Shown piece by piece: positions 11,384 through 61,850 of a stretch of DNA of 64,000 nt (positions within the stretch are counted from its first letter, which is position 1; the number at the start of each line of letters is the position of its first letter). The notes beneath the pieces are model-generated. The model was given only the letters and a program-made list of their open reading frames with translations, had not been told where the DNA came from and ran no database searches. Made by a program: the position numbers and the translations under genes. The stretch is taken from the NCBI GenBank assembly GCA_039931165.1, contig JBDTSL010000001.1, forward strand, positions 2,214 through 66,213, written 5' to 3'. This DNA comes from Candidatus Doudnabacteria bacterium. Lineage in GTDB: Bacteria; Patescibacteriota; Doudnabacteria; UBA920; O2-02-FULL-48-8.

Positions 11384-11490
11384 TTTTGCGAGCGACCGCT
11401 TTTGAAGCTTGAGATCTGGCGGGAGCGAATCAATCTCATCTTTAATTGAGATTGCTTCGTCGTCCCGATAAATCGGGACTTCTCGCAAAA
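11384..11490 (+). repeat. Family-1 structured intergenic element, copy a
   Basis: Outer inverted repeat TTTTGCGAG/CTCGCAAAA. Inside it, CGAATCAATCTCA pairs with TGAGATTGCTTCG, then a hairpin TCCCGAT-AAA-TCGGGA, then CTTCTCGCAAAA. Confidence 0.6.
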
Positions 11491-11502
11491 TTGAGAGAAA
11501 AT

Positions 11503-12645
11503 TTAAAGCGCTTTTTTTCTTCGGGCAATGTAGAGCAGGAACAAAACCGCGACTATGCCAATTGGCAGGATCACATTCCAGGGAGTCGCTTTTTGCGCCG
11601 GATTAAATCCTGTAGCTGCCAGCCCGAGGCCGGGTGGCGGAGTAACTGCTACTGGCACAGGAGTGACCACATTTGCCGTATTTACGATGGTGCAGCCGGT
11701 CGTAAGGCCTGCTACAACCGTGATCGAGCCGCAAGTGGATGAATTTTGAGTCCAGCCGGACGGCACTACTTCCGTGGCTGAATAAACTCCTGGGGTAAGA
11801 CCGCTTTGGGTATGTGATCCGGTTCCTGCCGAGGTTGAAATGCTGAAACTAGAGAAGCCGGCGCCGGTGGTGTTAAAGTTGAATGTGCCATTGCCTCCGA
11901 CCGCTGTTTTATTTACGGTAATTGATCCTGTGGCCGGAAGTCCAGAAGCGCATACCGGTGTGGTAATCGTATTGAGAGAGGTGGTGACGGTTCCGCCAAA
12001 TGCCAGGACTCTCCCTGTCCAAGTAGCGAGGTTGCCGAGTGTAATGCCCGAAGCATCGATGTCCCGGCCTACGAAGGCAGAGTTTGCTCCAAGCGTTGTG
12101 GCAGCGCCCGGGGTCCACCAGACATCACAAGAGGTCGCGCCATTGGAGGCCGTGACCACGGAATTGGCCACAGTGGTAAGCGCTCCGGTCATCCGGAAAA
12201 TGTATACGCCGGCGCCATTCAGAGTAATTCCGCCGGTTCCTACGTCAGCCGCGCCCAGAACGCAATATACTCCCGGTGTGTAAACGCCGACCGGACCGTG
12301 TGTGGTATCGGCAGCGAGGTCAATTGCCCCGGGTGCGAATGTAAACGTACACGGCTGGCTGTTCAGGGCAGACAAAGCCGCTCCCTGATCTATGCCGGCC
12401 TGGGCATAAGTAGCATCAGCCGTATGGGTGACGCCAGTGACTGTGGGCGCTACAGCAGGCCCGGTGGTATATCCCAGATCGCCGTTAATGACGGTCCCGA
12501 CCAAAGTGTTGGTATAGGAACCGGAAAGAACGGTAAAGCTGTTGGCCGTCCCAAGGCCCGGTGACGTTGCCGCGTTGGCTGTGACCCCAACCATAAGAAC
12601 AGCGGCCAATAAAATGATAGTGAACAGGATATTAATCTTTTTCAT
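11503..12645 (-). CDS. Sortase-substrate surface protein C: ice-binding-like (DUF3494) domain + Thr/Gly-rich Ig-like segment + LAATG sorting signal
   Basis: Reads LGTANSFTVLSGSYTNTLVGTVINGDLGYTTGPAV after the signal peptide. C-terminus is PGLGLAATGFNPAQKATPWNVILPIGIVAVLFLLYIARRKKAL. Confidence 0.7.
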   Translation of the reverse strand: MKKINILFTIILLAAVLMVGVTANAATSPGLGTANSFTVLSGSYTNTLVGTVINGDLGYTTGPAVAPTVTGVTHTADATYAQAGIDQGAALSALNSQPCTFTFAPGAIDLAADTTHGPVGVYTPGVYCVLGAADVGTGGITLNGAGVYIFRMTGALTTVANSVVTASNGATSCDVWWTPGAATTLGANSAFVGRDIDASGITLGNLATWTGRVLAFGGTVTTSLNTITTPVCASGLPATGSITVNKTAVGGNGTFNFNTTGAGFSSFSISTSAGTGSHTQSGLTPGVYSATEVVPSGWTQNSSTCGSITVVAGLTTGCTIVNTANVVTPVPVAVTPPPGLGLAATGFNPAQKATPWNVILPIGIVAVLFLLYIARRKKAL

Positions 12646-12747
12646 AGTTTGTTTTTAATTATTATATTTTTTTCAAAAGTTACAACTTGTTTAAATTATA
12701 AATAAATCTCCTATAAAAAGCAAGCTCTCTGTGGATAACTGATCACA

Positions 12748-13041
12748 TTGAAAATTATTGCAAAAAATCCTGTGGCATGGTATATTTCAGGCATGGAGCT
12801 GCAAATTTTCGCCCAAACCTTTTTTTTTCTCACCGCTTCGGTTGCGATTATCGTATGCGGGGTGCTGTCCGCGATCGTAATGTACCAGCTGATCTTCATT
12901 ATGAAGCATCTGGAACATATTTCCGATAATCTCGACGATACGGCGGATGATTTAAAAAACCGGGTGAAAGACATGCTCGATAGACTAGAAGAGATCCCGT
13001 TGCTTTCTTATTTTTTTAAAAAAAGAAAAAAAAGGTCGTAA
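12748..13041 (+). CDS. Hypothetical small membrane protein
   Basis: 97 aa with one hydrophobic helix, an acidic coiled segment and a basic C-terminus. Divergent from the adhesin C promoter region. Confidence 0.4.
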   Translation: MKIIAKNPVAWYISGMELQIFAQTFFFLTASVAIIVCGVLSAIVMYQLIFIMKHLEHISDNLDDTADDLKNRVKDMLDRLEEIPLLSYFFKKRKKRS

Positions 13042-13063
13042 TATATTTAAAGGAAAAAACAAT

Positions 13064-13408
13064 ATGCCAAACAAGACGGGTGCGAAAAAATCTCATAAGG
13101 GTTTAATGTGGGTTTCGGGAGCGGTGATAGGTGCCGCGCTTGGAGCAGGCGCTGTGGTCCTGGCCGAATCGAAGATGGGCAAAGACATGTGGAAGCAGGC
13201 GAAACAACAAAGCAAGGATTTCGCCAAATACTTGGCCCCCAAGGTGAAAAAAATCAAACAAATGGGCGAATCCCAATATAAAAAGATGGCCAGCGAGGCT
13301 ATGCAATCGTACAAAAAAAATAAAAATCTTTCCCGCGCTGAAGCAGACCATCTTTTGAAAGCAGCTCGGGCATCCTGGAAACACATGGTAAAAAAAGCAA
13401 AGGTCTAA
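13064..13408 (+). CDS. Hypothetical membrane-anchored Lys-rich protein (YtxH-like architecture)
   Basis: 114 aa with an N-terminal TM helix (GLMWVSGAVIGAALGAGAVVLA) then a K/A/Q-rich helical region. Followed by a terminator. Confidence 0.4.
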   Translation: MPNKTGAKKSHKGLMWVSGAVIGAALGAGAVVLAESKMGKDMWKQAKQQSKDFAKYLAPKVKKIKQMGESQYKKMASEAMQSYKKNKNLSRAEADHLLKAARASWKHMVKKAKV

Positions 13409-13428
13409 TCGTTTCAATTGCTACAAAA

Positions 13429-13455
13429 AGAACTCCTAACTAGGAGTTCTTTTTT
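13429..13455 (+). terminator. Rho-independent terminator (agaactcct-aact-aggagttct + T5)
   Basis: Perfect 9-bp stem followed by a T-run, directly after the stop of the 13064-13408 ORF. Confidence 0.7.
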
Positions 13456-13565
13456 AATTATTCAGGAATTTCATTGGAGCCCCCGGGTAGAATCTCCCGC
13501 CTTTGGCGGGATCCCGCCGTCCTTTAAAATTAATTTCGGTGGCGGGAGAACTCACATTATTTATC

Positions 13566-13623
13566 TGGAGCCGAAGGTCGGGATCGAACCGACGACCTCT
13601 GCTTTACCCCCCAACACCAAATT
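13566..13623 (-). ncRNA. tRNA 3-prime-half-like sequence (ATTTGGTGTTGGGGGGT, then anticodon-stem 3-prime strand, variable loop, T-arm, acceptor 3-prime strand, CCA)
   Basis: Minus-strand ATTTGGTGTTGGGGGGT-A-AAGCAG-AGGTC-GTCGG-TTCGATC-CCGAC-CTTCGGC-T-CCA. Joined to the 5-prime half at 13711-13766 it gives a near-complete tRNA-Thr(CGT)-like cloverleaf with one C-U acceptor mismatch. Confidence 0.35.
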
Positions 13624-13634
13624 AAAATGCCTAA

Positions 13635-13710
13635 TGGAGCCGACGGTCGGGCTTGAACCGACAACCTGCGGTTTACGATACCGCTGCTCTACCAGTTGAG
13701 CTACGTCGGC
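13635..13710 (-). tRNA. tRNA-Thr (anticodon CGT), CCA encoded
   Basis: Minus-strand sequence GCCGACG-TA-GCTC-AACTGGTA-GAGC-A-GCGGT-ATCGTAA-ACCGC-AGGTT-GTCGG-TTCAAGC-CCGAC-CGTCGGC-T-CCA. All four stems pair perfectly. Confidence 0.9.
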
Positions 13711-13766
13711 ATGATTTGGTGTGGGGGTTTACGAAAGCATTGCTCTACCAACTGAGCTACGCCGGC
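13711..13766 (-). ncRNA. tRNA 5-prime-half-like sequence (acceptor, D-arm, anticodon stem-loop with CGT) ending in ACCCCCACACCAAATCAT
   Basis: Minus-strand GCCGGCG-TA-GCTC-AGTTGGTA-GAGC-A-ATGCT-TTCGTAA, then a C-rich tail that is the reverse complement of the start of the 3-prime-half element at 13607-13623. Confidence 0.35.
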
Positions 13767-13787
13767 ATAAGACAAATTATACCACAG

Positions 13788-14966
13788 CTAATTAAATGAC
13801 TGGGAGTCAGTATTGAAGCCGCCGCCGGACGACATGCACCATCGGATATACTCGCTATTTTTCAGCTCCGCGCAATCCGCGCTGAGCTTTGCCGGATCAG
13901 TGGTCCAGCTTTTTATATTGCTGCCCAAATTCTTAAAGCAAGCCTCCTGAAAATTGCTGTTCAGCTGGGCGCAAAAATCTCCGATCTTATTTGTTTGGCC
14001 GACATAGCGTCCTGACAATCCGTCCACTACTCCCAATTGGCAAATTTGAACATAGTTCGCGCTTGGCATCAAACTGCAGGAATTTTCCATTTTCGCGTAA
14101 TCTTGGGTCGAGCCGACCTGATTGGTGCCGATGATATGAAAACATCCCTCCCTGTAAATTTCGGGAACCTTCATGCACAAATCTGCGTTCTTCTTCCAGT
14201 CATATTTGCTTAACTCGGCAAAATACGAACTTTGATACTGGTAGCAAATATTCAAATAGCGGGTTGCCAGAGCATCACAGGGATACATGGGATCGGATGC
14301 CTTCAGAAATTCGGTCGGATGAGCGGTATTGGTTGAGCTTGAAGAATTTTCCATAAAAACCCCGCCATAACAAATCGTTGGTTGATTGCCTTCCAGCTTG
14401 TCGCACAATGCCAACGACTTATTTAGATCCGTATCCGTGATAAACATCATAGCATGCCCTATGCCGTGGACGCATTCGGAATAAAACCTCGGGCTGGTAT
14501 AATCAGAAATTTTCCCGCATGCGGTTTGAAGCGCTTCCGTGATCTTGGGACTGTCCGGATCTGTCAGAGACAAGTGTTTGTCCCAAAAATACGATTCCAT
14601 GACGCCGTGATAAAACCCGCCCCAGCAAACCGGGTTGGCCCTGGAATATACTTTGGACACGCTCCCCTCCTGTTCATATGCCTTCCTGCCGATGTAATGG
14701 GTCAGTTCGTGACAGCGGCTGAATATTTCGGGATACTGTTCGTTGTCTTTCAAAAGCTGAAGAATTTTTACATAATCCCATTTCGCCATTAAAGTCCCTG
14801 CGACTTGCATGTAACAATTGTCGCTCAATTGCTTTTCCCCGCAGGGTCTCATCTGCGAGCGCAGAAACTGGGAATCGGAAATGGTTTGATTTGGATGCGA
14901 CAAAACAAAAAACATGCCTCCGGCAATAAGCAATATCCCGGTTATATAAATTAAATTCCTGTTCAT
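13788..14966 (-). CDS. Membrane-anchored cysteine-rich extracytoplasmic protein with HExxH motif (putative metallopeptidase-like; function unknown)
   Basis: N-terminal TM (LIYITGILLIAGGMFFVL), more than 20 Cys, CHELTHYIG (HExxH) and ECVHGIGHAMMF. Start placed at MNRNLIY (14966), which overlaps the NUDIX stop as ATGA. The track ORF extends to 15008. Confidence 0.45.
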   Translation of the reverse strand: MNRNLIYITGILLIAGGMFFVLSHPNQTISDSQFLRSQMRPCGEKQLSDNCYMQVAGTLMAKWDYVKILQLLKDNEQYPEIFSRCHELTHYIGRKAYEQEGSVSKVYSRANPVCWGGFYHGVMESYFWDKHLSLTDPDSPKITEALQTACGKISDYTSPRFYSECVHGIGHAMMFITDTDLNKSLALCDKLEGNQPTICYGGVFMENSSSSTNTAHPTEFLKASDPMYPCDALATRYLNICYQYQSSYFAELSKYDWKKNADLCMKVPEIYREGCFHIIGTNQVGSTQDYAKMENSCSLMPSANYVQICQLGVVDGLSGRYVGQTNKIGDFCAQLNSNFQEACFKNLGSNIKSWTTDPAKLSADCAELKNSEYIRWCMSSGGGFNTDSQSFN

Positions 14967-15370
14967 TGCTTGAATTTCTTGTAATTCTCGATCGGTTGAT
15001 GAAGCCAATCCGGAAAATCTACTTTTGGATTATTCAGATCAACCCATTTATATTCAGTGTGTTCTTCCGAAAGTTCAACACGGTCCGACTTTGGCTTACA
15101 AAGAAACATCAGCAGAGTGATTTGTTGTCCATCGTCGCGGGTAAAGTAGTGAACATCCAGGGGCATAACAACCTCAATATCCAAATTCGTTTCTTCTTTC
15201 GTCTCTCTTAGCAAACCGGTAAAAGGATTTTCGCCCGGCTCCAGCCTGCCGCCCGGAATATCCCAGGCTCCGGGCTTATGGACGTCGTTAGGCCGCCTTT
15301 TCAAAAGCAAAACTTTTTCGTCTTTGACAATAAAAGCTTTCGCTGCATTGCGAAAATTATTTTCTGGCAT
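14963..15370 (-). CDS. NUDIX hydrolase
   Basis: Nudix box GGRLEPGENPFTGLLRETKEETNL (GX5EX7REUXEEXGU). Confidence 0.85.
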   Translation of the reverse strand: MPENNFRNAAKAFIVKDEKVLLLKRRPNDVHKPGAWDIPGGRLEPGENPFTGLLRETKEETNLDIEVVMPLDVHYFTRDDGQQITLLMFLCKPKSDRVELSEEHTEYKWVDLNNPKVDFPDWLHQPIENYKKFKQ

Positions 15371-15387
15371 TTTTTTAATTTTCCGAA

Positions 15388-15888
15388 CTAGTTGCTGCCT
15401 GGGCCAATCGTAATAGTACCGGCATAATTATAAAATGTGCCGCAATAATTCACTCCCGGGCTTGCCAGCGTGTTAAGGTTCTCAAGTTTATAGACGATCA
15501 TGTAAGCTCTGCCGCAAGAAAGATAAGCTATATTATAATACCCCGCTCCTGCCCAGCCGCCAGTTTGATTTAAAGGATCGAGTGGCAGTCTGGACATATA
15601 CGCGGACATAGCTGTCTGCAAAGTCGTCCAACTTGCGTCGCTACTATTGCTCCAATTAAAGTCCGGGTTGGCAGACCCTCCGGAAGAGGGATAGCCCGCA
15701 TGATCTGTGAAATATAATTCAAGTCCCGACATCATTTGTTTTACATCAGCTATCCTTTTTGCATCCCTCGCTTTTAGCCTGGCGCTGCTGAGAGACACCA
15801 AAACAATAGCGGCCAAAAGCCCGATGATCGCGATCACAACCAGAAGTTCGATTAGGGTAAACCCGTTTGATTTTTTTATTAATTGCAT
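15388..15888 (-). CDS. Type IV pilin-like protein (prepilin N-terminal methylation motif)
   Basis: N-terminus KKSNGFTLIELLVVIAIIGLLAAIVLV has the G/FTLIE class-III signal plus a hydrophobic helix. Confidence 0.8.
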   Translation of the reverse strand: MQLIKKSNGFTLIELLVVIAIIGLLAAIVLVSLSSARLKARDAKRIADVKQMMSGLELYFTDHAGYPSSGGSANPDFNWSNSSDASWTTLQTAMSAYMSRLPLDPLNQTGGWAGAGYYNIAYLSCGRAYMIVYKLENLNTLASPGVNYCGTFYNYAGTITIGPGSN

Positions 15889-15985
15889 TATTGTTTTGGT
15901 TGGTTTTGTATTTTGTCAGTTTAATAATTTCTTTGACAATCTATTTTAGGTCGCAAGAATAGTTAAAAATTTATCAAGCAATTTC

Positions 15986-16059
15986 TGGAGCAGGTAGCGA
16001 GAATCGAACTCGCGCTCTATCCTTGGGAAGGACATGTACTGCCATTATACCATACCTGC
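15986..16059 (-). tRNA. tRNA-Gly (anticodon CCC), CCA encoded
   Basis: Minus-strand GCAGGTA-TG-GTAT-AATGGCA-GTAC-A-TGTCC-TTCCCAA-GGATA-GAGC-GCGAG-TTCGATT-CTCGC-TACCTGC-T-CCA. Confidence 0.85.
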
Positions 16060-16139
16060 TCGTCGCAATGGGTAGACACTTCGCATTTTACTATGTAAAA
16101 ATACTGCGGTCTACCACTGCTCCTTTCGTAAAAAATATT

Positions 16140-16979: not shown

Positions 16980-17347
16980 TGGCCGGAGGGCTTGCTGAAA
17001 AAATAATTAAACCATTTTGTGAAATTGGACGGGCTGTTCACAATCGGATGGCTATCTGGCGCGGCGTCGCCCTGCAGAGGCAGGCCGATCACGACTTCCC
17101 CGTCCTTTTTCAGATTTAATTTCTCGCGCGCCGATTTATCCTGATAATCGGGGGTCTGGAAATATTGAATGAGGTAGCTCATCTGCTGATTGTCCGATTT
17201 GATCTTCTGAACCTGGCCCTGAAGTTTTGCGATCTCGTGGTCGATCCGGTATTTCTGGATCAAAATTTTGGCGGCGAAGCCCATGACGAAAAGCAGGGAA
17301 ATCCCCAAAATCCATGAGGCAATTCTTGATCTCAATAAATTCTGCAT
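16976..17347 (-). CDS. Septum formation initiator (FtsB/DivIC-like) cell division protein
   Basis: 123 aa with an N-terminal TM then a coiled coil (HEIAKLQGQVQKIKSDNQQMSYLIQYFQTPDYQDKSAREKLNLKKDGE). Confidence 0.6.
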   Translation of the reverse strand: MQNLLRSRIASWILGISLLFVMGFAAKILIQKYRIDHEIAKLQGQVQKIKSDNQQMSYLIQYFQTPDYQDKSAREKLNLKKDGEVVIGLPLQGDAAPDSHPIVNSPSNFTKWFNYFFSKPSGQ

Positions 17348-17459
17348 TTTATCTTGATGATAATAAAGGGATCAATGTGAACAGGAGCATGGCTCCGATC
17401 ATGAATACAGCGAACACGATAGATAATTTTTGGAGTAATTTTCTGTTTCGCATAAAATA

Positions 17460-21119: not shown

Positions 21120-21122
21120 AAT

Positions 21123-23192
21123 TTACTTGGCAATCACCATTGGCCAAAAATCATCGGTATTGGTTTCTGATTGAAAGCCAACACCGCCAATAGTTTCCAC
21201 AACTCCCGGCCCTTGCCATTTGAGTTTGAACTGCCCAAGACTCAAGCTACCGGCAAAATGATAAGGCTTGGATCCCGATTGTTTCTGAACCAACAGGCTA
21301 TACGACTGGGTGTTGCCGAAAGCGCTCGATTTGATCTTGAACGGCAGAATATAGGAAATGGTTACGCTTTTGCTTTGTCCGACGTCGGTATTAAGCCAGC
21401 CCGCGAACTCGGTTTTGCCTGCTTCGATCCGCGCAAAGACATTTGAATTCAGCTCTCCAATATCCCAGTTAGCCAGGTCCTTATCCGTGCGCATGCCTTC
21501 TGCGGCTGAATCTAAATATTGATAATCATCAAACCCTGAAGCCGAAATAAATTGGCTGCCCAGCGGCACCAGAACGCGAAGATAATTTTTATTGTCAGCT
21601 TCGGCGGAATTTTTTCGGATAATGGTCAGGGTGTTTATGACAGAGCCGTCCGATAAAACCTTGCTCAGTAAGTTGGCATCCTGATCAATGCTCAGGTCGG
21701 TTTTAGTGCCGCCCAGATTGGAATTGTTGATGGACAAATAATCATAATCCGCGGGCAAGATCTGACCGGCAAAACCCAAATCCGCAATTCGGACTTGCGT
21801 GTCGTGATCTTTGCTGTAGAGCAGAATGCTTCTCTGTCGCAGATTGTCCTCGAAAATCTGGAACAGTTCGAACCATTGGTTCTTATTCATCGCGGACAGG
21901 CGGTCCAGAAGCTCGGGCGTAAAATCAGCCAGGAATTTTTTCGGCTGGTTTAAAGTTTTGTCATAGTCTATTGAAGTTTTAAACTGCGTTTCCTGCTGGA
22001 AATTTTCCGGGGTCAAAGTCACGCCGTATTGGTCCATTTCTACAGGCCCGGTCAAGCGCAGGATATCTTCAAACAGCTTCGGAGTGACGGAGATCACTCC
22101 GTCCGCGGTCTGGCTGCCCTTTTCAAAAAAATACAAAAGCTTTTGGGCCGTGGTCGGGAAATCCGCGAACCAATTCGCATCACGGATAGCCCAGCGCTTA
22201 ATTTCAGGCTGCATTGGCCCCGGGGCCGCTATCTGCTCGTAGATCTGCCCGTCAAGCTGGTATATGCTTTCAATTTTCAGCTTAGATATCGATCCTTGAT
22301 TGGTTTGTAAAACCCCATATGTTCCGATAAAGCCGCCGGTAGCTCGGGCTTCGTCGGAATTCTGGAAGATCAACAGATAGGTTTTTTGTCCGCTGAAAAG
22401 TCCGAGATATAAATTCTCCAGGCCCACCAGCTTGTCTAAGATCGAACCAAGTCCCGCGACTTCCTGTTTGGCCTTATCCAAAGTTTGTGAATAATCAAGA
22501 GGCAGGCTACCCGCAAGATTGAATTCTATCGAAGCCTCGGCAATCAAGCTGCGGCTGGAAGCCAGCAGTCCGCGGTTGGCTGTAAGCCTTTCGTTAAAAT
22601 TCTCGGTTTGCACTCCTAGACTTGACACTTTCAGCTCATCGAACAAGTTCAGCGCCGCGGTCAATTGTTTTCCGGCCTCTGCCAGGGCTGCGGCACCCGA
22701 AAGCATATGATCGGCGGAATTTGCCTGAGGGGCAATCCATTTGAGAACCGGAAAACTATTAAGTTTGCTTTGCGCAAGATTGATATTGGACGTGGCCGCG
22801 TCGAACAACTGGCCGGCAGCCGCAAAATTTTGCGAACCGATATTTTCTTGCGCCGTATGCAGGTCGGTATATGCCGAGGTCGCGTCTCCTAATATTTCGC
22901 CGGTTGCGTTGCGGACGGCAGACAAATAAATCATCCCTTGAAGCAACACGATCAAAATAATGCCGGTAAGCGCGAACGAGCCGATTTGGACCAAATGCCT
23001 GCGGTAATCGCGGAGTTGGGGTTTAAAAGATAAAAGCTGCGGAACTTCCGCAAAGTTCTGTCTGCTTCTGATAACCGCGTACATCAGCTCGGAGCTCATG
23101 ACCTCGCGCTTGATGACATTTTTGATCTTTAAGGGCTTGGCCTTCCGCCTGGCTGATCCGATGTCAATTTTAGAAAATCTTTTTGAGTTCAT
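21123..23192 (-). CDS. DUF4012-like membrane-anchored envelope protein
   Basis: 689 aa with an N-terminal TM and the central motif LLIFQNSDEARATGGFIGTYGVL, resembling the DUF4012 AELRxTGGFIG signature. Sits where murG would be in a canonical dcw cluster. Confidence 0.5.
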   Translation of the reverse strand: MNSKRFSKIDIGSARRKAKPLKIKNVIKREVMSSELMYAVIRSRQNFAEVPQLLSFKPQLRDYRRHLVQIGSFALTGIILIVLLQGMIYLSAVRNATGEILGDATSAYTDLHTAQENIGSQNFAAAGQLFDAATSNINLAQSKLNSFPVLKWIAPQANSADHMLSGAAALAEAGKQLTAALNLFDELKVSSLGVQTENFNERLTANRGLLASSRSLIAEASIEFNLAGSLPLDYSQTLDKAKQEVAGLGSILDKLVGLENLYLGLFSGQKTYLLIFQNSDEARATGGFIGTYGVLQTNQGSISKLKIESIYQLDGQIYEQIAAPGPMQPEIKRWAIRDANWFADFPTTAQKLLYFFEKGSQTADGVISVTPKLFEDILRLTGPVEMDQYGVTLTPENFQQETQFKTSIDYDKTLNQPKKFLADFTPELLDRLSAMNKNQWFELFQIFEDNLRQRSILLYSKDHDTQVRIADLGFAGQILPADYDYLSINNSNLGGTKTDLSIDQDANLLSKVLSDGSVINTLTIIRKNSAEADNKNYLRVLVPLGSQFISASGFDDYQYLDSAAEGMRTDKDLANWDIGELNSNVFARIEAGKTEFAGWLNTDVGQSKSVTISYILPFKIKSSAFGNTQSYSLLVQKQSGSKPYHFAGSLSLGQFKLKWQGPGVVETIGGVGFQSETNTDDFWPMVIAK

Positions 23193-23195
23193 GTG

Positions 23196-29465: not shown

Positions 29466-29467
29466 TT

Positions 29468-29519
29468 ACCCCCTCACCAAATCTTGGTACGAGGGGTTTA
29501 TCCCCCTCACCAAATCATC
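29468..29519 (+). repeat. Direct repeat of ACCCCCTCACCAAATC separated by its imperfect inverse (TTGGTACGAGGGGT), 3 nt upstream of the dacA start codon
   Basis: ACCCCCTCACCAAATC-TTGGTACGAGGGGT-TTAT-CCCCCTCACCAAATCATC. The same motif (CCCCCACACCAAATCAT and its inverse) flanks tRNA-Thr at 13607-13727. Confidence 0.7.
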
Positions 29520-29829
29520 TAAAGAGTTATCTATTCGTTTCATAAGTTGAACGAATGCTCTACGACGAAATTTAAGATTACGTTCCCTGATTCAAGCATC
29601 TTTTTCTGATTTATAGGCTTCATAATAAATAAGTTCAAATGGAATTCGTGATTTTGTTGAGAAAACTCTCCCTTCATTGTGTAATTTAAAGCGTTTTTTT
29701 AAATCTTTCGTGGAACCGACGTATTTTTGGCCGTCTTTTTTGCTTTTTAGTATATAAACATAAAACATGCGATTTGGTGCGGGGGTTTAGTTTCAAGCGT
29801 TAACAGGTTTGGTGTAATTTTAGCACACT

Positions 29830-30214: not shown

Positions 30215-30264
30215 GGTTATAAAAGTCATGAGCATGCTCATGACTAAATAAAATAGAACATAAT

Positions 30265-33022: not shown

Positions 33023-34594
33023 TCAGTTACTATTTTCTATCTCGCCGCCGAGGATTTTCAGTGCCGATTCTACGGTTTCATTTGGAGTATCAACTGCCGT
33101 ACTACCGGGCCAGTCTTTGGCCATAACCGGCTTGACCATCAGTTTAATGCCTGCGACTTCCTCAATCACCTGATCGACAATGATCCTGTTCTTGCGCGCT
33201 TCGATCGCGTCTTTGTGGAATTTATACGGAAAAGTCAGGATCAATTCTTTGCCGATCACTGCCTCGGGCTTGGATAATTTCAAACTGGAGATCAAAGAAT
33301 GATTGTAATCCTTGATTTTTTCCAGAATTTCCGGCCATTTTTCTATGATAGCTGCCAACTCCTCATTACCATCGCGAGCCTGCGAAGCAGGCGCGGCGAT
33401 CTTTTCTTTTGCTAAGATTGCTTCGTTGGCCGCAAAATCAGACCCTTTGGAAATCGGCCTCCTCGCAATGGTACTATTTTGTTCTGCATCAATCCGCGTT
33501 AAGTCTACATCTGTGAGTGTTGTTGTTGCCTCCACCGCGGCCAATTCCAAAGGCAAGCTTTGGACCACAGCCCATTTGATCTCGCTTTCGGCTTTTTGAA
33601 AGATCTGAATGATTTTCGTCAGCCTAGCCAGCGGCAGGCTGTCGGTCTGCTTTCTCAAATTTTCCTGCACGTCCTTGGTGAAGCCAAAGTCAGAAACGGC
33701 GCCGACTTTGAGCAATAAAATTTTGCGCAAATATTCCAGAAAGTCCTTTTCAAACTGGTACAGATCGCGTCCTCCGTACATCAGCTTGGAAATAAAGCCA
33801 ACCGCTTCCTGGGTTTGATTGCCGATGAGCAGATCTAAAAAATTACCCGTGGTTTTAATTCCGGTCAGTCCCAGGATCTGTTCCACCATCTCTTCAGTGA
33901 CCTGCTCTTCGGAGTAATTGATGACCTGGTCCAGAAGCGACAAACCGTCGCGGAAACTGCCGTCCGCCGCCGCGGCGATTTCCATCACAGCCCCGTCCGT
34001 AATGCTGACTTTATTGTCTTCGGCCACAAACTTCAAAAGTTTGGTCAGATCGGCGATGCTGACTTTTTTAAAATCAAACCGCTGAGTGCGGGATATGATC
34101 GTGGCCGGGACTTTATTTATCTCCGTCGTGGCAAGTATAAACACAGCGTGCTTCGGCGGCTCTTCCAAAGTTTTCAGAAGCGCGTTGAACGCGCCTTTCG
34201 AAAGCATATGGACCTCGTCGACGATGATGACCTTGTAGGTCGCCTTAGTCGGAGCAAACTGCAAATGCTCGATCAGTTCGCGGATATTGTCGACTCCGGT
34301 GTGGGATGCCGCGTCGATCTCCAGCAGATCCAGGCTGGTGGCCTCGAAAAACTGCCGGCAGACGTCGCATTCGTTGCATGGTTCCGATCCTTGTCTGTTG
34401 GTGCAATTGATCGCGCGCGCAAAAATCCGCGCCAGCGTGGTTTTGCCCACTCCTCTGGGGCCCGTGAACAAATACGCGTGGCCGACGCGATTATTGGCCA
34501 CGGCATTGGCTAAAGTGGTTTTGATATGTTCCTGATTGACCACGGAAGCGAAATTCAGCGGCCGGTATTTTCTGTATAGAACTAGATTGGACAT
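33023..34594 (-). CDS. dnaX: DNA polymerase III subunit gamma/tau
   Basis: Walker A GPRGVGKTT, a zinc-module cysteine cluster CTNRQGSEPCNECDVC, and the motif IIVDEVHML. Confidence 0.9.
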   Translation of the reverse strand: MSNLVLYRKYRPLNFASVVNQEHIKTTLANAVANNRVGHAYLFTGPRGVGKTTLARIFARAINCTNRQGSEPCNECDVCRQFFEATSLDLLEIDAASHTGVDNIRELIEHLQFAPTKATYKVIIVDEVHMLSKGAFNALLKTLEEPPKHAVFILATTEINKVPATIISRTQRFDFKKVSIADLTKLLKFVAEDNKVSITDGAVMEIAAAADGSFRDGLSLLDQVINYSEEQVTEEMVEQILGLTGIKTTGNFLDLLIGNQTQEAVGFISKLMYGGRDLYQFEKDFLEYLRKILLLKVGAVSDFGFTKDVQENLRKQTDSLPLARLTKIIQIFQKAESEIKWAVVQSLPLELAAVEATTTLTDVDLTRIDAEQNSTIARRPISKGSDFAANEAILAKEKIAAPASQARDGNEELAAIIEKWPEILEKIKDYNHSLISSLKLSKPEAVIGKELILTFPYKFHKDAIEARKNRIIVDQVIEEVAGIKLMVKPVMAKDWPGSTAVDTPNETVESALKILGGEIENSN

Positions 34595-35714: not shown

Positions 35715-35884
35715 AAATGAAGTTTATCCACAGAAAACAATAGTATTCTACCAATTATACGACTTAAAGTTGATTTTGGTTTCCAAAAGCTTATTTTAGC
35801 TTAAACATTATAGCAGAGTTCTTAAGGAACACGCAAGTCCTCCCTGCAGAGGAAGTTTGGTGAACATTAACAAATATAACGCAT

Positions 35885-36008
35885 CTGCGAGCGGCCGATT
35901 TCATTTAGCATTATGTTTAGCGGCCGCGTGGCAGTCTATACTAATGATTAGATTGCTTCGTCGCCCCGCCCTTGAAGAATCCGTAATTTAGCGGGTCTCC
36001 TCGCAAAT
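35885..36008 (+). repeat. Family-1 structured intergenic element, copy b
   Basis: TCTGCGAG...AGATTGCTTCGTCG-CCCCGCC...GCGGG-TCTCCTCGCAAA. It shares the AGATTGCTTCGTCG and CTCCTCGCAAA blocks. An internal GCGGCCG/CGGCCGC hairpin is present. Confidence 0.55.
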
Positions 36009-36226
36009 TCGATAGATTCAGCTTTATTCACTAAACTCGTGAAGCTGTTTCTAATCAATCAAACTTTTTACCCAAGCGACAAAGGTCTGCAGGCCAAGCG
36101 TGAAGCTGTCGTCCGGCGGGTTTTCCAAGATCTCCGCCCCCTTATAAAATTCTTCGTCTTTCAATTCGACCGCGTTTTCAGCCGGGGCTTCGCGGTTTTT
36201 TTCGGTTTCCAATTTTTCCGGTGAGT

Positions 36227-51526: not shown

Positions 51527-51539
51527 AATCTTATTTGTC

Positions 51540-51646
51540 TTTGCGAGGCTTCCAAAAGCATGAACCAAGGCCGAAGCAATCTCTTTCCCAAAGATTAGAT
51601 TGCTTCGTCGCCCTGTACCGAGCGCCGGTACAGGGCTCCTCGCAAA
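51540..51646 (+). repeat. Family-1 structured intergenic element, copy c
   Basis: Outer pair TTTGCGAGG/CCTCGCAAA. Inside it, CGAAGCAATCT pairs with AGATTGCTTCG, then a hairpin CCTGTACCG-AGCG-CCGGTACAGG, then GCTCCTCGCAAA. Confidence 0.6.
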
Positions 51647-51666
51647 GGCGACTTATTAAAAATTAT

Positions 51667-54792: not shown

Positions 54793-54877
54793 GATCTTGA
54801 TTAAATTACGCTTAAAATCACCGCGTTTTCAGCAACAAACATTAGGGTAATTATACCGCTTTTGCCGTAAACTTTCA

Positions 54878-56524: not shown

Positions 56525-58041
56525 TGCCGGACATGAATAAAAAAACTTCCTCGATGTGGCTGTATCCAATAATTATTTTGGGCGGAGTTTTGCGCTACTA
56601 CAACAATACGGCGGTGGCGCTTTGGCATGACGAAGCCTTCTCCGCGCTGTATATCCGTTATCCAATTGGCGAAATGATGCACCGCATCACCCTGGATGTG
56701 CACCCGCCGCTTTACTATTGGGTCTTGAGGTTGTGGAGCTATGTTTTCGGCTCAGGCCTTCTGTCCCTGCGCTCGCTTTCGATATTATTCGGGATTCTGA
56801 CAATTTACGCCTGTTATCTGTTTGTGAAAGAAGCTTTCCAAAACGAAAAATTGGCAATTTTGGCAAGTTTTTTTCTGGCCATCAACCCGTTTCAGATCCA
56901 GTATTCGCTTGAGGCCAGAATGTACACTTTAGGAACCTTTCTTATCCTCTTTTCCTCTTATCTTCTGATCCGGGCCCTCAATTCAAATAAAACTTCGGTC
57001 TGGGCCGCCTATGCTGTTATTACCGCGGCTTGTTTTTATACGCACTACTTTTTATTTTTCTCAGTTGCCGCCCAAGGCCTTTATTTTCTTTATTGGCTTT
57101 GGCAGCAAAAAAGGTTCACTCTCAATTTTAAAAAAGATAATCTGACGCTGAAAGGATTGGGGAGTTATCTGTTGAGCCTGATAATTTTTTTGCCTTGGGT
57201 GCCGACTTTGCTGGCCCAGGTACAAAGGGTGGAAAAATCCTTCTGGATCCCGGCTCCGGACCGATGGTCGATTCCCTCAACGATTTGGAAAATGGCCTTC
57301 GGCGGCCAGGGCAATGACCATATAACTCTAGCCGTGATAACACTGGTCGCGATAGGGCTGATCATCTATTATTTCAGGGAATCAGCGCCTCCTGCCAGAT
57401 GGTTTATCATGCTCGGGGTTGCTGTGCCTTTTGTCATATCCCTCTTGCTTTCGTTCAGGCAGGCGATCTATCAGGACCGCTACTTCGTGTTCGCCTCTTT
57501 ATACTTCACTATCCTGATAGCGGGCACAATCTATGTGGTGCCGAAATACACCACCAGAAGAACGCTGACATTTTTGTTAGCCGCTTTCTCGATCGTGATA
57601 TTTTTTAAAAACTGGAACGACCTGGGCGTTAAAAATTTATTTATTAACCGCGAAATAAACCACAAGCCCGGCATGGCAGCCGCGGCTTTGGTGATCAACA
57701 GCGAAGCCAAGCTTGGGAACAAAATTTATATCGGTTCAAGCTTCGTTTACTTTACCTTCCGCTACTATAATAAAACCTCAATTCATCCCCTGCTTTATTC
57801 AAACGAACCGCTGAAAAACCTGCCGCACTTTTCCGGCACCGCGCTTCTCAACGACGACGACCTGATCATGGACTTCGGCCAGGCCAAGAAAAACGACACG
57901 GTCTGGCTTCTGTGGACCACCGGTTTCGGCGGATCGAAACCCAATGTCCCCGGCACATGGCTAAAAATTGACGAAAAAAGCTTCGGTGATACACCTGGTT
58001 TCAAGGGCGATATTTACGTGACCCAATACCGAGCAGGATAG
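56524..58041 (+). CDS. GT39/GT83-family (ArnT/PMT-like) membrane glycosyltransferase, paralog
   Basis: ALWHDEAFSALY DE motif, 505 aa, polytopic. Start overlaps the upstream stop. Confidence 0.6.
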   Translation: MPDMNKKTSSMWLYPIIILGGVLRYYNNTAVALWHDEAFSALYIRYPIGEMMHRITLDVHPPLYYWVLRLWSYVFGSGLLSLRSLSILFGILTIYACYLFVKEAFQNEKLAILASFFLAINPFQIQYSLEARMYTLGTFLILFSSYLLIRALNSNKTSVWAAYAVITAACFYTHYFLFFSVAAQGLYFLYWLWQQKRFTLNFKKDNLTLKGLGSYLLSLIIFLPWVPTLLAQVQRVEKSFWIPAPDRWSIPSTIWKMAFGGQGNDHITLAVITLVAIGLIIYYFRESAPPARWFIMLGVAVPFVISLLLSFRQAIYQDRYFVFASLYFTILIAGTIYVVPKYTTRRTLTFLLAAFSIVIFFKNWNDLGVKNLFINREINHKPGMAAAALVINSEAKLGNKIYIGSSFVYFTFRYYNKTSIHPLLYSNEPLKNLPHFSGTALLNDDDLIMDFGQAKKNDTVWLLWTTGFGGSKPNVPGTWLKIDEKSFGDTPGFKGDIYVTQYRAG

Positions 58042-58122
58042 CTGTAACTATTGCCTGAGTTCCTCGATTCATTATTATAGTATTCAAAAGGTCGATTAAA
58101 TAACCAGAAACCTCAATAATGT

Positions 58123-58551
58123 ATGAAGAAATTTATTATTTCCGCGGCAGTCGGAACCATGATGTTGGCGGCTCTTCCTGTTTTTGCTGAAAACTCCAAT
58201 TCCAGGACCCCAACCCAGCTAACTACGGTTGACTTAGCCTGCGCTCAGACTGCTGTAAACACCCGTGAAGCAGCTGTTATTGCAGCCGTATCGGCGCATT
58301 CCGGCTCCTGGACCGCGGCTTTGCAGGCACGCCAGACAGCGCTCAACACCGCCTGGGGCCTGTCGGACACCACCGCACGGAGAGCGGCGATCAATGCCGC
58401 ATTGAAGACATATAAGACAGCGCATAAAGCTACTCAAACCGCTTTCAACAAGGCTCAAAGAGATGCCTGGACTGCTTTCAAAACAGCGGCAAAAACTTGC
58501 CATATCAGCTCGAGGGACGACTCATCCGGTTTTAGCTTGGACAATCGGTAA
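58123..58551 (+). CDS. Secreted Ala/Thr-rich hypothetical protein
   Basis: Signal peptide MKKFIISAAVGTMMLAALPVFA, then repetitive helical A/T/Q-rich sequence. The ORF is GC-richer than its surroundings. Followed by a terminator. Confidence 0.45.
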   Translation: MKKFIISAAVGTMMLAALPVFAENSNSRTPTQLTTVDLACAQTAVNTREAAVIAAVSAHSGSWTAALQARQTALNTAWGLSDTTARRAAINAALKTYKTAHKATQTAFNKAQRDAWTAFKTAAKTCHISSRDDSSGFSLDNR

Positions 58552-58565
58552 TATCTGAAATAAAA

Positions 58566-58594
58566 AACCGTCCCGGTTAACGGGGCGGTTTTTT
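58566..58594 (+). terminator. Rho-independent terminator (ccgtcccg-gttaa-cggggcgg + T7)
   Basis: 8-bp GC-rich stem with one G-U pair, then a T-run. Confidence 0.7.
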
Positions 58595-58653
58595 AAATTT
58601 ACTGATCGATTTTGACGCCGAGATGTAATTGCTTTGAGCATAATTATTGGCTT

Positions 58654-59616
58654 TTATGGTTTGACCGCATCGGTATTGGATCCAGCCACATCGGGCTGGG
58701 GCTGTTGGCTGCAGGCGCTGGCCTGGAAGCAATAATAGGCCCATTTCGCCAGTCGAAGGTCTATGTAGGCCAGGCGAGGGCGGTCTTTGGGAGCTATCTG
58801 CTTATTTAGCAATACCGATAAATTATTCAGTTGTGTAACCACCGAACGGGTGGTATCAAACATCACTGACCAGCCTTCGGAGGAAATAAACTGCACATCG
58901 GTGCTTTTCTTCCCAGGAAATTTTATCTGAGTGATCGGCGTTGAGATCTTACCGTTCCATTGCCGGGTCATAGACAGCACGAATGCGGCCAGTTTGGAAT
59001 TAGCCAGAACCTCGCCGGACGCAAAGGCTTCGGTCAACTGGTCGTTGACCACTAGTTTGCTGCCCGGAGTATCTATCTGCGAAACTACGGTTCCGTCCTC
59101 ATCAACCAGAAAATATTTGCCGTTCGATTCGATCACAAACCCCGGCACTCGTTCTTTGATCTCGATTGCGATGCTATTCGGCCAGATCCTCCGATAACCC
59201 GTAACTTCTTTGATCGTCGGCAGTGCCTGGGTTAAAAGTTTATTCACGCGGCCCTTGGTTAAAAGAAAAAAAATGTTTTTTCGGATGAGCATTAAACGGG
59301 ATTGTCCGGCCTGGGAGATGACATCCGCGATTGCCTGTGAGGAAATCTGGACGTTTCCAGAAACAGAAACATTTGTAACGACAAAAGTGGAAGAAATACA
59401 TAAATAATAAATTATCGCAGCCAAACCAAGAAAGATTACAGCCTGCCATAATTTCGAACCAAGCCCTATTTTGGCCATAAACCTGTTGAAACGGCCCTGA
59501 GGATTTGGGGTAAAAACACGCTTGTAATTGGCCGCCTGTTTTATCTTATTCCGAAAACCCCGGCCGCCAAACCGCCGTTTCGGCTCCAATTTTCTTCTGT
59601 GGGTGGAAAAAATCAT
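58654..59616 (-). CDS. ftsQ: Cell division protein FtsQ/DivIB (POTRA domain)
   Basis: Basic N-terminus, single TM, a POTRA-like beta domain. Lies immediately downstream of ddl, as in dcw clusters. Confidence 0.6.
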   Translation of the reverse strand: MIFSTHRRKLEPKRRFGGRGFRNKIKQAANYKRVFTPNPQGRFNRFMAKIGLGSKLWQAVIFLGLAAIIYYLCISSTFVVTNVSVSGNVQISSQAIADVISQAGQSRLMLIRKNIFFLLTKGRVNKLLTQALPTIKEVTGYRRIWPNSIAIEIKERVPGFVIESNGKYFLVDEDGTVVSQIDTPGSKLVVNDQLTEAFASGEVLANSKLAAFVLSMTRQWNGKISTPITQIKFPGKKSTDVQFISSEGWSVMFDTTRSVVTQLNNLSVLLNKQIAPKDRPRLAYIDLRLAKWAYYCFQASACSQQPQPDVAGSNTDAVKP

Positions 59617-60644
59617 TCTTTATCCAATGCCAGGCCGATTAATTTATCCAAAAACTGCGGGTAAGAGATCCCAGCGGCTTTGGCAGACTTGGGAGTCAAT
59701 GAATTGGCGGTCATACCGGGAATGGTGTTGATCTCCAAAAAATAAATTTGCCCGTTGTCCTTGACAATAAAATCCGACCGGCTGACCCCGCGGCAACCCA
59801 GAAGTTTGTGTATCAAAACTGCCCGCTCTTGAAGATTCTTGGCCAATGATCGGGGAATATGCGCCGGGACTATTTCATCGGAATAATCCGGATTGTATTT
59901 TGCGCGAAAATCAAAAAACTCCGAGCCTCGCTTCGGCAAGATTTCAATTACAGGAAGTGCCTGCAATTTTTGGTTCCCCAACACCGGCACGGTCAATTCC
60001 CGGCCCGACAGATATTCCTCGATCAATATTTCACTGTCGTGTTCAAAAGCCCGCCGGATCCCTGCTTTAATTTCTTTTTTGCTTTTTGCGATGGTCACGC
60101 CCAGGGACGAACCGATGCGATTGGGCTTAATGACCAGTTTCCCGTGCAATTTGTTCAAATATTTTTTAGAGTTTTTCCGATATTCTTCGCTGTTCAAAAT
60201 AACATGCGGTGCTACCAAAATTCCTTCTGAAGCCACGACTCTTTTGGTTTTAGCTTTATCCATAGCCAGCGCTGAGGCCAAAATTCCTGAACCGGTGTAT
60301 TTTACCCCCAGAGACTGCAGAACTCCCTGAATGGTGCCGTCTTCGCCTCCTGGCCCGTGCAGGGCCAAGAAAGCGACATCGATCTTTCCCTGTGAATTTT
60401 TATCTATCGGCACAATTTCGCGGTTTGATGAGATTTTTTTCGTATACCCTAATTTCTCAATCTGCTTGATTGTCGGACTGCTGATCAACCATTGGCCTTT
60501 TTCTGAAATTTCAACCGGGGTCACGTCATATTTTTTTTTGCTGAGATTTTCGGCCACATTTTTTCCCGACTTCAAAGAAATCTCCCTCTCTTGAGAAGTC
60601 CCGCCAAAAATCAAGGCGATTCTAAGTTTTTTCTTATGTCTCAT
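59613..60644 (-). CDS. ddl: D-alanine--D-alanine ligase
   Basis: 343 aa with an ATP-grasp fold. N-terminus IALIFGGTSQEREISLKSG, C-terminus EINTIPGMT. Confidence 0.9.
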   Translation of the reverse strand: MRHKKKLRIALIFGGTSQEREISLKSGKNVAENLSKKKYDVTPVEISEKGQWLISSPTIKQIEKLGYTKKISSNREIVPIDKNSQGKIDVAFLALHGPGGEDGTIQGVLQSLGVKYTGSGILASALAMDKAKTKRVVASEGILVAPHVILNSEEYRKNSKKYLNKLHGKLVIKPNRIGSSLGVTIAKSKKEIKAGIRRAFEHDSEILIEEYLSGRELTVPVLGNQKLQALPVIEILPKRGSEFFDFRAKYNPDYSDEIVPAHIPRSLAKNLQERAVLIHKLLGCRGVSRSDFIVKDNGQIYFLEINTIPGMTANSLTPKSAKAAGISYPQFLDKLIGLALDKE

Positions 60645-61729
60645 TTCAAAATCCTAGGGATCAAGGGATTAATTCTAGCTACAACTTCGTAGTTTATCGT
60701 GTCTATTGTTTTAGCCAATTCGTCCGCGCTGATTTCGGCTCCGATCAACTCGACTTTGTCTCCTGCCCTAACTTTCTTGAGATCAGTAACATCAACCATG
60801 GTCAGATTCATGCAGACCCGGCCCAAAATTTTACAGCGTTTGCCGTTTATCAAAACTTGGCCGTTGTTGGAAAACCTCCGGTCAAAGCCGTCAAAATAGC
60901 CGATCGGCAAAACCGCAAGTTTGGTCGCGCGCCTGGTTTGATAAGTTAAATCATAGCCAACGAAAGCTCCTTTTGGCAATGCTTTCACTTGAATCACTTG
61001 GGTTTGCCATGACAGCACCGGCCTCACGGCAAATTTTGCTTTTTTGCGCGTAAAATCCGACGGCCATAGTCCGTACAAACCTATTCCCAGCCTTACCATA
61101 TCATGCCGGCCTGCTGCGCTGACAATTCCTGCGGCAGTACAGGCAATATGCTTGATCGGAACAATTCCCCGCCATTCCAATTCCTCGATCACCGTGTTAA
61201 ACCCGAGGTTTTGTTTGTGGGTAAATTCCAAATTTTCTTCGGATGCCGCAAAGTGAGAAAACACTCCTTCGATCTTTAAATTCGGCAATCGGAGCAGTTT
61301 GTCCGCAAAAAAAGCAACATCGGCCGGTAGTATTCCAAGCCTGGATGTGCCGGTATCGACTTTCAGATGAATTCTTGCAGTCTTTTTTAATTTTTTGGCC
61401 GCAGCCGAAATCAGCCTGGCTTGTTTTATATCGTAAACTGCTAGGGAAACGTTTCTTTTGATTAAATCCGGGATTTCAAACGGGTCATAAAAACTCAAAA
61501 CCAAGATAGGTTTTTTGATGCCGGTTTGGCGCAAAGACAAGGCCTCGAGGCCCGAAGCCACGCCAAACCAATCTGTTTCTCTTTCGATAGCCGAAGAAAC
61601 CAAGTCTATTCCGTGGCCATAAGCATTGCTTTTGACCACTGCCATGATCTGAGTATCACCAACAGCACGCCGATAGGCGCGCAGATTGTGAACCAAAGCG
61701 GATTTGCTGATTATAACTTTTGAGGACAT
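60641..61729 (-). CDS. alr: Alanine racemase
   Basis: PLP site AVVKSNAYGHG. 362 aa. Confidence 0.9.
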   Translation of the reverse strand: MSSKVIISKSALVHNLRAYRRAVGDTQIMAVVKSNAYGHGIDLVSSAIERETDWFGVASGLEALSLRQTGIKKPILVLSFYDPFEIPDLIKRNVSLAVYDIKQARLISAAAKKLKKTARIHLKVDTGTSRLGILPADVAFFADKLLRLPNLKIEGVFSHFAASEENLEFTHKQNLGFNTVIEELEWRGIVPIKHIACTAAGIVSAAGRHDMVRLGIGLYGLWPSDFTRKKAKFAVRPVLSWQTQVIQVKALPKGAFVGYDLTYQTRRATKLAVLPIGYFDGFDRRFSNNGQVLINGKRCKILGRVCMNLTMVDVTDLKKVRAGDKVELIGAEISADELAKTIDTINYEVVARINPLIPRILK

Positions 61730-61774
61730 GGATTAGATCACCACGCGACGGCAAATATCATACCTGCTTAACCG

Positions 61775-61850
61775 TCGCTCGCGAATTCGCATTTGCGAGG
61801 AGCCGCTTTTTTACCTAAAAGGTCAGCTTCGGCGGCAACGAAGCAATCTA
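61775..61850 (-). repeat. Family-1 element, copy d (inverted orientation, most divergent)
   Basis: Minus strand reads AGATTGCTTCGTTG-CCGCCGAAG...GCGG-CTCCTCGCAAA-TGCGAATTCGCGAG. It abuts the serS stop codon. Confidence 0.5.

Follow-up and report, generated by a model that had tools for sequence, protein, structure and literature searches.

What are the short, structured elements that recur between genes in the genome of a Candidatus Doudnabacteria bacterium? The question arises from a stretch of 64,000 nt of this member of the candidate phyla radiation (CPR), hereafter the window, to which the counts given below refer unless stated otherwise. An initial annotation had described in it a family of four intergenic elements of about 100 nt (a, b, c and d), and had considered them to be either a mobile element resembling MITEs (miniature inverted-repeat transposable elements) or a structured RNA or regulatory family. 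The analysis presented here indicates that the elements are probably DNA repeats composed of pairs of hairpin units, and that they represent a divergent relative of the repeats recognised by small GIY-YIG nucleases acting on single-stranded DNA (ssDNA). They are read here as selfish or relic DNA repeats and not as regulators of the adjoining genes.

Hairpin units and their arrangement

All four copies were recovered where the initial annotation had placed them, each between co-directional minus-strand genes; a, c and d begin 1-18 nt past a stop codon, and for b the distance is about 40 nt. The core 14-mer AGATTGCTTCGTCG is found six times with up to two mismatches, against 0.53 expected, and six or more matches occurred in none of 100 shuffled sequences, while CTCCTCGCAAA is found five times with up to one mismatch, against 1.62 expected. 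A fifth locus, e, lies at 33367-33473 within a 523-aa dnaX open reading frame (ORF), where the frame stays open throughout. The family is thus real and larger than first described, with five loci, but its basic unit is not an element of about 100 nt: such elements are pairs of a smaller unit. Nine units can be recognised, loci a, b, c and e being head-to-head pairs and d a monomer (Table 1). A relaxed scan of the window gave 51 matches as compared with 38 in shuffled sequences, and only the nine known units rise above this background.

The unit is a hairpin module of about 40-60 nt (roughly 50), described here in the orientation in which TTGCGAG comes first. It comprises, in order, the position of an optional tag of the form (C/T)GTC-W, followed by (A/T)TTGC, GAG(GAG), a copy-specific hairpin, CGACGAA, GCAAT and CT(C/A). 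A basal stem of 4-5 bp is formed by (A)TTGC...GCAA(T), the conserved purine-rich blocks GAGGAG and CGACGAA face each other as an internal loop, and the 3' end is an unpaired CTC/CTA tail. In the dimers the GCAATCT ends point inward and the tags outward, with 10-15 nt between the two units. The internal inverted repeat CGAAGCAATCTC/GAGATTGCTTCG that had been noted in the clearest copies does exist, as the junction where two inner unit ends meet, and the three-way fold seen in a and c results simply from the pairing of their two units with each other. Folded as single strands, a and c are far more stable than shuffled sequences on both strands (z -4.9 to -7.6), b and e weakly so (z -1.2 to -1.9), and the monomer d folds no better than its shuffles (z -0.9). 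In a, b and e the left arm is degenerate.

Distribution across bacteria

The spread of the unit was examined with the search pattern AGATTGCTTCGTYG-N15-45-CTCGCAA, which has about 22 specified bases, in 596 Gb of species-representative genomes, where an estimated few to roughly 17 matches would be expected by chance. Matches were obtained at no fewer than 119 genome loci, which represent about 18 groups at the phylum level. Among the matches listed are Chloroflexota, Bacteroidota, several Patescibacteria lineages including another Doudnabacteria, Omnitrophota, Zixibacteria, Ignavibacteriota, Fibrobacterota, Planctomycetota, Gemmatimonadota, Alpha- and Gammaproteobacteria, Desulfobacterota, Campylobacterota, a clostridial metagenome-assembled genome (MAG), Margulisiibacteriota, Melainabacteria and others, and the pattern is also present in 26 IMG/VR viral contigs. 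The unit keeps 14+7 identical bases across these phyla and is conserved almost base for base between very distant ones, and the segment between the two blocks is distinct in 158 of 167 units from other genomes. Outside the window the second block runs on as CTCGCAA-N-GAC in 154 of the 167 units, and therefore the opposite strand of the unit starts with a GTC tag. Single units and tandem arrays occur at other loci besides dimers.

This distribution bears directly on the possibility that the elements are structured cis-regulatory or small RNAs, transcribed together with their minus-strand neighbours, in which GAGGAG would be sequestered or presented as a ribosome-binding site (RBS), or whose transcripts would act in trans. 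The very stable folds of a and c (z -5 to -7.6) and the location of the copies in transcribed-looking spacers directly past stop codons would suit such a role; many REPs (repetitive extragenic palindromic sequences) undergo transcription and are able to stabilise the 3' ends of mRNAs (PMC3733652). The RBS function put forward in the initial annotation is, however, not borne out, as GAGGAG is a block conserved within the unit across about 18 phylum-level groups regardless of context, where the same blocks adjoin unrelated genes, and lies 68-310 nt from the next start codon (about 310 nt for a, about 283 nt for b and at least 68-109 nt for c). Each dimer contains the unit in either direction and folds equally well on its two strands, and units are found within ORFs, in dnaX here and in a uvrC-like ORF of L102, another Doudnabacteria genome described below. 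An Rfam scan of the window gave three tRNAs only, in agreement with the earlier failure to assign the elements to a named RNA family; no Rfam match rose above noise at E<=10 for element c or at E<=1 for seven loci, and no terminator-like site lies within a or c. In addition, SsnA, the characterised partner protein of the repeats compared below, does not bind RNA (PMC11893778). An RNA function as the basis of the family is consequently very unlikely, and although the elements may act secondarily on the 3' ends of mRNAs, which has been proposed for REPs generally, this is not what defines them. Past element a lie a distinct hairpin (11344-11371) and a site that resembles a promoter. Other identities that were considered and rejected include a terminator, as well as a retron, a CRISPR repeat, an attC site, a ribozyme and a tRNA-like cloverleaf, for which there was no reverse transcriptase, cas or integrase context and no Rfam hit.

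Linkage to GIY-YIG nuclease genes

The 3325 ORFs with a length of 60 aa or more at the 119 listed loci were clustered all-against-all. The sole recurrent small neighbour among these loci is a single-domain GIY-YIG protein of about 97 aa (PF01541, E=4e-18), whose gene lies exactly between two inverted units in four of four loci and in varying orientation. The reverse test started from 80 metagenome loci picked solely by similarity to this protein. Strict units were present on both sides of the gene at 14 of these loci and on one side at 24 more, so that 38 of 80 carried them in the expected orientation. The density of units was 1.95/kb within 250 nt of the GIY-YIG gene and 0.08/kb beyond (a 24-fold difference), and 58 of 72 units had their tags pointing outward. 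The nearest PDB sequences to the protein are the UPF0213 proteins 1zg2 and 1ywl; a literature search on GIY-YIG proteins in the context of COG2827/YhbQ/UPF0213 or of mobile elements returned nothing useful.

Across all fetched loci there are 84 tagged head-to-head elements, which fall into two size classes, one of 79-200 nt and one of 340-540 nt that contains the ORF. Dimers without the ORF greatly outnumber those that contain it, and both forms occur together in one Chitinophaga genome. As the same inverted pair brackets a GIY-YIG gene elsewhere, the window copies are the ORF-less (non-autonomous, REPIN- or MITE-like) form. The earlier comparison with MITEs therefore holds in so far as the elements are non-coding derivatives, bounded by inverted repeats and lacking an ORF, of an element that carries a GIY-YIG gene.

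It does not hold for classical MITEs. Under that explanation the copies would have been moved by a DDE transposase acting on terminal inverted repeats (TIRs) of the form TTTGCGAG/CTCGCAAA, or, as REPs, by a RAYT (HUH Y1) enzyme acting on their hairpins. The TIRs of 8-12 bp and the small, ORF-less, multicopy and intergenic character recall Nezha, RUP and ERIC, and the REP/RAYT system has the same overall logic. However, no direct repeat abuts 74 of the 84 tagged elements and the longest in the remainder is 3 nt, so that the target-site duplications (TSDs) whose presence was to be checked are absent. Clustering of the neighbouring ORFs at the listed loci yielded no recurrent transposase and only the GIY-YIG protein (no Y1_Tnp profile search was made). 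The ends of the elements are structured hairpin modules and not simple TIRs, and their tag is GTC(A/T) and not the GTAG of RAYT-associated REPs (PMC3733652). The elements are not classical MITEs because of this lack of TSDs and of a recurrent DDE-transposase neighbour, and an origin by a DDE or RAYT enzyme is extremely unlikely. The hexamer CTTATT is present on both sides of c (51530-51535 and 51652-51657), offset by 1-2 nt beyond its ends; this is a single case in AT-rich sequence, and none of the 84 elements elsewhere shows a duplication of this kind.

A covarying stem

At GIY-YIG loci without a strict unit, the design of the unit recurs with different stems, for example GTCATTCTGAGC..GAAGAATCTC, GTCATTCCCGCGAAGGCGGGAATCC, GTCATCCCGAG..GGGATCTC and GTCATTACGAGG..GTAATCT. 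When the five bases after GTC were counted wherever their complement lay nearby, the most frequent were ATTGC (169), ATTCT (48), ATTCC (37) and ATCCT (24), followed by ATTAC (14), ACTGC (11), ATCCC (11) and ATCGC (10), as compared with 0-2 each in shuffled sequences. In an unbiased version of the count, 166 of 225 tags (74%) had their own downstream partner, while the partner of a different stem type was found for 11%. Stem types change together with their partners, and it is therefore the hairpin that is conserved and not sequence alone. The compensatory changes by which a structured family was to be recognised are accordingly present, across the basal-stem variants of other genomes and also in the window, where both sides of the stem are changed and the stem is kept in e-left and b-left (Table 1). 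Further out in the unit, a distal border stem of at least 5 bp occurs in 66 of 167 variable regions, against 18 of 167 when shuffled.

Relation to known repeat systems

Two described systems are close to these units. The first consists of the Ssn nucleases, which were reported in 2025 from a small number of Proteobacteria (PMC11893778). SsnA, a single-domain GIY-YIG protein of about 94 aa, binds a hairpin termed NTS, CGTCATTCCCGCGMAVGCGGGAATCYRG (Chenal et al. 2025, Nat Commun 16:2388; PMC11893778); binding is restricted to ssDNA and to one strand, and the cut is made upstream (PMC11893778). The ssn genes are flanked by 'Ssn-related motifs' (SRMs), and the NTS-ssnA-NTS arrangement was likened by the authors to an insertion sequence (PMC11893778). 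The units described here resemble SRMs in being oriented hairpins that end 3' in an unpaired tail and, in most units from other genomes, bear a 5' tag containing GTC, in having many copies per genome and a broad spread, and in that, at related loci outside the window, two inverted copies flank a single-domain GIY-YIG gene of about 94-97 aa. Members of the GIY-YIG clade with 56-58% identity, at three loci (L170, L189 and L193), are flanked by the exact canonical NTS core, which ties this clade to the Ssn system. The protein of about 97 aa is thus predicted to belong to an Ssn-like clade, and the TTGCGAG unit is the commonest partner of one such clade in the sampled genomes and metagenomes. The units differ from SRMs in architecture, as the TTGCGAG...CGAAGCAAT unit has a basal stem of 4-5 bp, a purine-rich internal loop and a hypervariable distal insert of 15-45 nt, whereas the SRM has a single stem of 8 bp and a loop of 4-5 nt. 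They differ too in that the window copies are mostly tagless and have no adjacent nuclease gene.

The second system comprises the CGTC-tagged REPs, with tags CGTC, TGTC or CCTC (Di Nocera et al. 2013, BMC Genomics 14:522; PMC3733652). Their stem starts with A,T and is followed by a short loop and an unpaired tail; they are mostly head-to-head dimers, many of them located downstream of genes and some within genes for replication and repair (PMC3733652). They were described from five phyla, mainly from Alphaproteobacteria and with no CPR member, families 1 to 4 include dRS3 of Neisseria and RPE-4 and RPE-6 of Rickettsia, and they 'apparently lack a dedicated transposase' (PMC3733652). The likeness to the present units extends to the CGTC/TGTC tag, the A-T start of the stem, the short unpaired tail, the head-to-head dimers at four of five window loci, the location downstream of coding regions and the one copy in dnaX, while the tail of the unit is CTC/CTA rather than CCA. 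Among the individual families, the RPEs offer a further parallel, that of a palindromic repeat tolerated in frame in an essential gene, as is pair e in the linker of DnaX. The RPEs are of a different sequence family, although RPE-4 and RPE-6 themselves count among the CGTC REPs, and the insertion here is in a variable, probably disordered linker that holds other unit subtypes in relatives.

REPs and REPINs mobilised by RAYT enzymes also consist of tagged hairpins, replicate in the form of inverted dimers and flank the gene of their own nuclease. They differ in their tag (GTAG as opposed to GTC(A/T)) and in their enzyme (HUH as opposed to GIY-YIG). REPINs are, moreover, lineage-specific and vertically inherited, whereas the TTGCGAG unit spans phyla.

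The units belong, then, to a REP-like superfamily of hairpin repeats (PMC3733652, PMC11893778). Both the CGTC REPs and the Ssn/SRM systems were already known; what appears from the sequences to be new is the TTGCGAG subtype, which lies outside the published SRM pattern and was missed by it, with its different stem-loop design. Searches of the literature with peptide and DNA strings of the unit found no description of it, the sole match being a chance primer, GAGATTGCTTCGTCGCTCTG. This cloning primer, listed in Table 5 of a functional-metagenomics paper (PMC8066302) as lying '150 bp upstream' of a soil-metagenome resistance gene, falls in a repeat unit and shows how commonly units adjoin genes in environmental DNA. 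The CGTC-type REPs, which were left without a dedicated enzyme in 2013, now have a candidate enzyme, as orphan repeats. The repeats also account for the 'junk' peptides that recur in MAG annotations and for unusual inserts in the linkers of DnaX or UvrC.

Proposed mode of spread

By analogy with the Ssn/NTS system, each unit would fold into a hairpin when the DNA becomes single-stranded, as in replication, transformation or conjugation. A cognate Ssn-type nuclease would then bind the hairpin on the tagged strand only and nick the ssDNA just upstream of the tag. Such cleavage would be the likely basis of the spread of the repeats, as in IS200/IS605 and REP/RAYT systems, and might also, or instead, serve the control of incoming ssDNA. 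It is from this analogy that we infer the cleavage of the TTGCGAG subtype as ssDNA, the mechanism of its mobility and any present activity in this genome.

A broader proposal, which we advance only tentatively and regard as somewhat doubtful, is that the TTGCGAG...CGAAGCAAT module and the gene for the GIY-YIG protein of about 97 aa together form a pan-bacterial, horizontally moving ssDNA element, in effect a transposon or homing element driven by GIY-YIG. Its bipartite recognition would tolerate an arbitrary hairpin insert, and its ORF-less dimers would colonise spacers and the linkers of dnaX and uvrC. To our knowledge, GIY-YIG is a catalytic class that is not known to mobilise prokaryotic insertion elements, and the loci described here offer defined pairs of enzyme and site for asking whether GIY-YIG ssDNA nucleases mobilise repeats.

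GIY-YIG enzymes are classic homing endonucleases, and the same loci could be read in the opposite sense: a free-standing GIY-YIG homing gene would insert at the palindromic junction ..GCAATCT|AGATTGC.. of a dimer already in place, and the window dimers would be unoccupied sites and not decayed transposons. The placement of the ORF, always exactly between the inner ends and in either orientation, and the large excess of ORF-less over ORF-containing dimers are what such homing would produce. The proteins, however, are single-domain, of about 97 aa, and without the DNA-binding domain of homing enzymes, and cleavage of ssDNA by the characterised family takes place upstream of the tag, on the outer side and not at the inner junction (PMC11893778). 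Homing into dimers would also leave the multiplication of the dimers themselves unexplained, single units and tandem arrays exist as well, and two loci (L035 and L116) hint that ORF-containing and ORF-less alleles have sequence derived from the element in common in their inner spacers. Empty homing sites are therefore an unlikely explanation as compared with non-autonomous repeats related to the Ssn system.

State of the copies in the window

Several observations weigh against the assignment of the window copies to a repeat system recognised by GIY-YIG nucleases. The published SRM pattern (HGTCWY N0-2 YYVSBRH N0-5 WNVSBRG N0-2 RNCYNB), which finds the NTS used as a positive control, has no match in the window, fails on the TTGCGAG consensus and matches in only 5 of the 80 GIY-YIG loci. 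Families 1 to 4 of the CGTC REPs have a stem of 8-9 bp and a loop of 4-5 nt, from which the unit departs, and about 60% of the distal regions are without a strong hairpin. An exact GTC tag is present in one of the nine window units (c-left, tGTCT), against 154 of 167 units elsewhere; the tag of c-right is one mismatch off and the other seven units have none, and the tag is reported to be crucial for Ssn binding (PMC11893778). The inner blocks are still perfect in several copies. The 64 kb hold no cognate nuclease gene, be it between the units, next to them or elsewhere. The window does contain one GIY-YIG ORF (29466-29768), which by hhalign is Ssn-like from end to end (probability 95%), including the C-terminal NPxYxDL, but this ORF is interrupted and is bracketed by a different inverted repeat, CCCCCTCACCAAATC / GATTTGGTGCGGGGG. 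By its flanks it is related to, and not the cognate partner of, the units; its C-terminal codons (DLVRG, twice) come from its own flanking repeat. Finally, no clean empty site with exact boundaries was found for any window copy, the spacers of the closest relative, L226 (GCA_037200925.1, DnaX identity 78%), being too diverged. At syntenic sites of L226, element b is absent, as is the GIY-YIG insert between the thioredoxin and peptidase S11 genes, and L226 has its own short units elsewhere.

The copies in the window are most simply seen as resident, partly decayed, non-autonomous passengers. Dimer c is the best preserved (fold z about -7.5), and unit d abuts the stop codon of gene 61851..63155(-). 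The distal hairpin of a-right is near-identical to one in L102 (Candidatus Doudnabacteria RIFCSPHIGHO2_12_FULL_48_16) and to ones at Chloroflexota loci. In L102, which has no synteny with the window, a well-tagged dimer, GTCTTTGCAAG...CTCGCAAAGAC, at about 3395-3480, appears in frame within the uvrC-like ORF, and it is its right-hand hairpin that is almost identical to that of a-right.

Dimer e is tolerated in frame in a variable, probably disordered linker of DnaX. When the corresponding linkers of Doudnabacteria relatives were aligned (P0003, P0004, P0005, P0009 and P0013), translated units of differing subtypes were found, with the peptides VIPAKAGIQ (of the NTS type) in P0003, IASEAKQS in P0005, VASEAKQSH in P0013 and IARRP..NEAILA in the window, as well as EIASS... 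As the linkers hold different unit subtypes, the alignment suggests a site of recurrent landing or retention.

Table 1. Hairpin units and the GIY-YIG ORF in the 64,000-nt window of Candidatus Doudnabacteria.
Feature	Position	Strand	Structure and remarks
Unit a-left, degenerate	11383..11437	+	TTTTGCGAG - CCGC..GCGG hairpin - GAGCGAATCAATCTC; tag lost
Unit a-right	11448..11490	-	minus-strand reading: TTTTGCGAGAAG - TCCCGA tttA TCGGGA - CGACGAAGCAATCTC
Unit e-left, in dnaX	33367..33403	+	TACC-ATCGCGAG - CCTGC gaag CAGG - CGCGGCGATCTT; basal stem ATCGC/GCGAT
Unit e-right, in dnaX	33414..33473	-	in-frame translation ..IARRPISKGSDFAANEAILA.. in variable DnaX linker
Unit b-left, degenerate	35880..35938	+	CGCAT-CTGCGAG - CGGCCG..CGGCCG - CGTGGCAGTCTA; basal stem CTGC/GCAG
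Unit b-right	35950..36009	-	TTTGCGAGGAG - ACCCGC..GCGGGG - CGACGAAGCAATCTA
Unit c-left	51537..51583	+	sole window unit with intact tag: t-GTC-T-TTGCGAGG .. CCGAAGCAATCTC
Unit c-right	51597..51649	-	GCC-T-TTGCGAGGAG - CCCTGTACCG gcgc TCGGTACAGGG - CGACGAAGCAATCTA; tag one mismatch from GTCT
Unit d, monomer	61788..61851	+	CGCAT-TTGCGAGGAG - CCGC..GCGG - CAACGAAGCAATCTA
Ssn-like single-domain GIY-YIG ORF	29466-29768 (feature 29466..29786)	-	in-frame TGA after codon 58; PF01541 E=1.6e-16

Other features of the window

The inverted repeat that brackets the disrupted GIY-YIG ORF at 29.5 kb has relatives in the window. A complete tRNA-Thr(CGT) gene (13635-13710, minus strand) lies between the apparent 5' and 3' halves of another tRNA-Thr-like gene (13560-13800), and this arrangement is bracketed by ACCCCCACACCAAATC / AATTTGGTGTTGGGGG, of the same repeat family. 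It looks like a second family of cassettes bounded by inverted repeats, which would land in a tRNA anticodon loop. When introns were allowed, ARAGORN called only the inner tRNA at this site and not the split tRNA at 13.6 kb.

Within the 689-aa ORF 21123..23192, the minus-strand sequence GTCTTTGCGCGGATCGAAGCAGGCAAA at 21414-21440 has the look of a short tagged unit, and may be an old intragenic relic or a chance occurrence. About 60 nt (8658-8713 and 10252-10307) are identical between the paralogous neighbours 7959..9548 and 9568..11169, which points to a recent tandem duplication or to gene conversion. A perfect palindrome of 20 nt, AGTCATGAGCATGCTCATGACT, is located at 30225-30244, just downstream of the thioredoxin gene.

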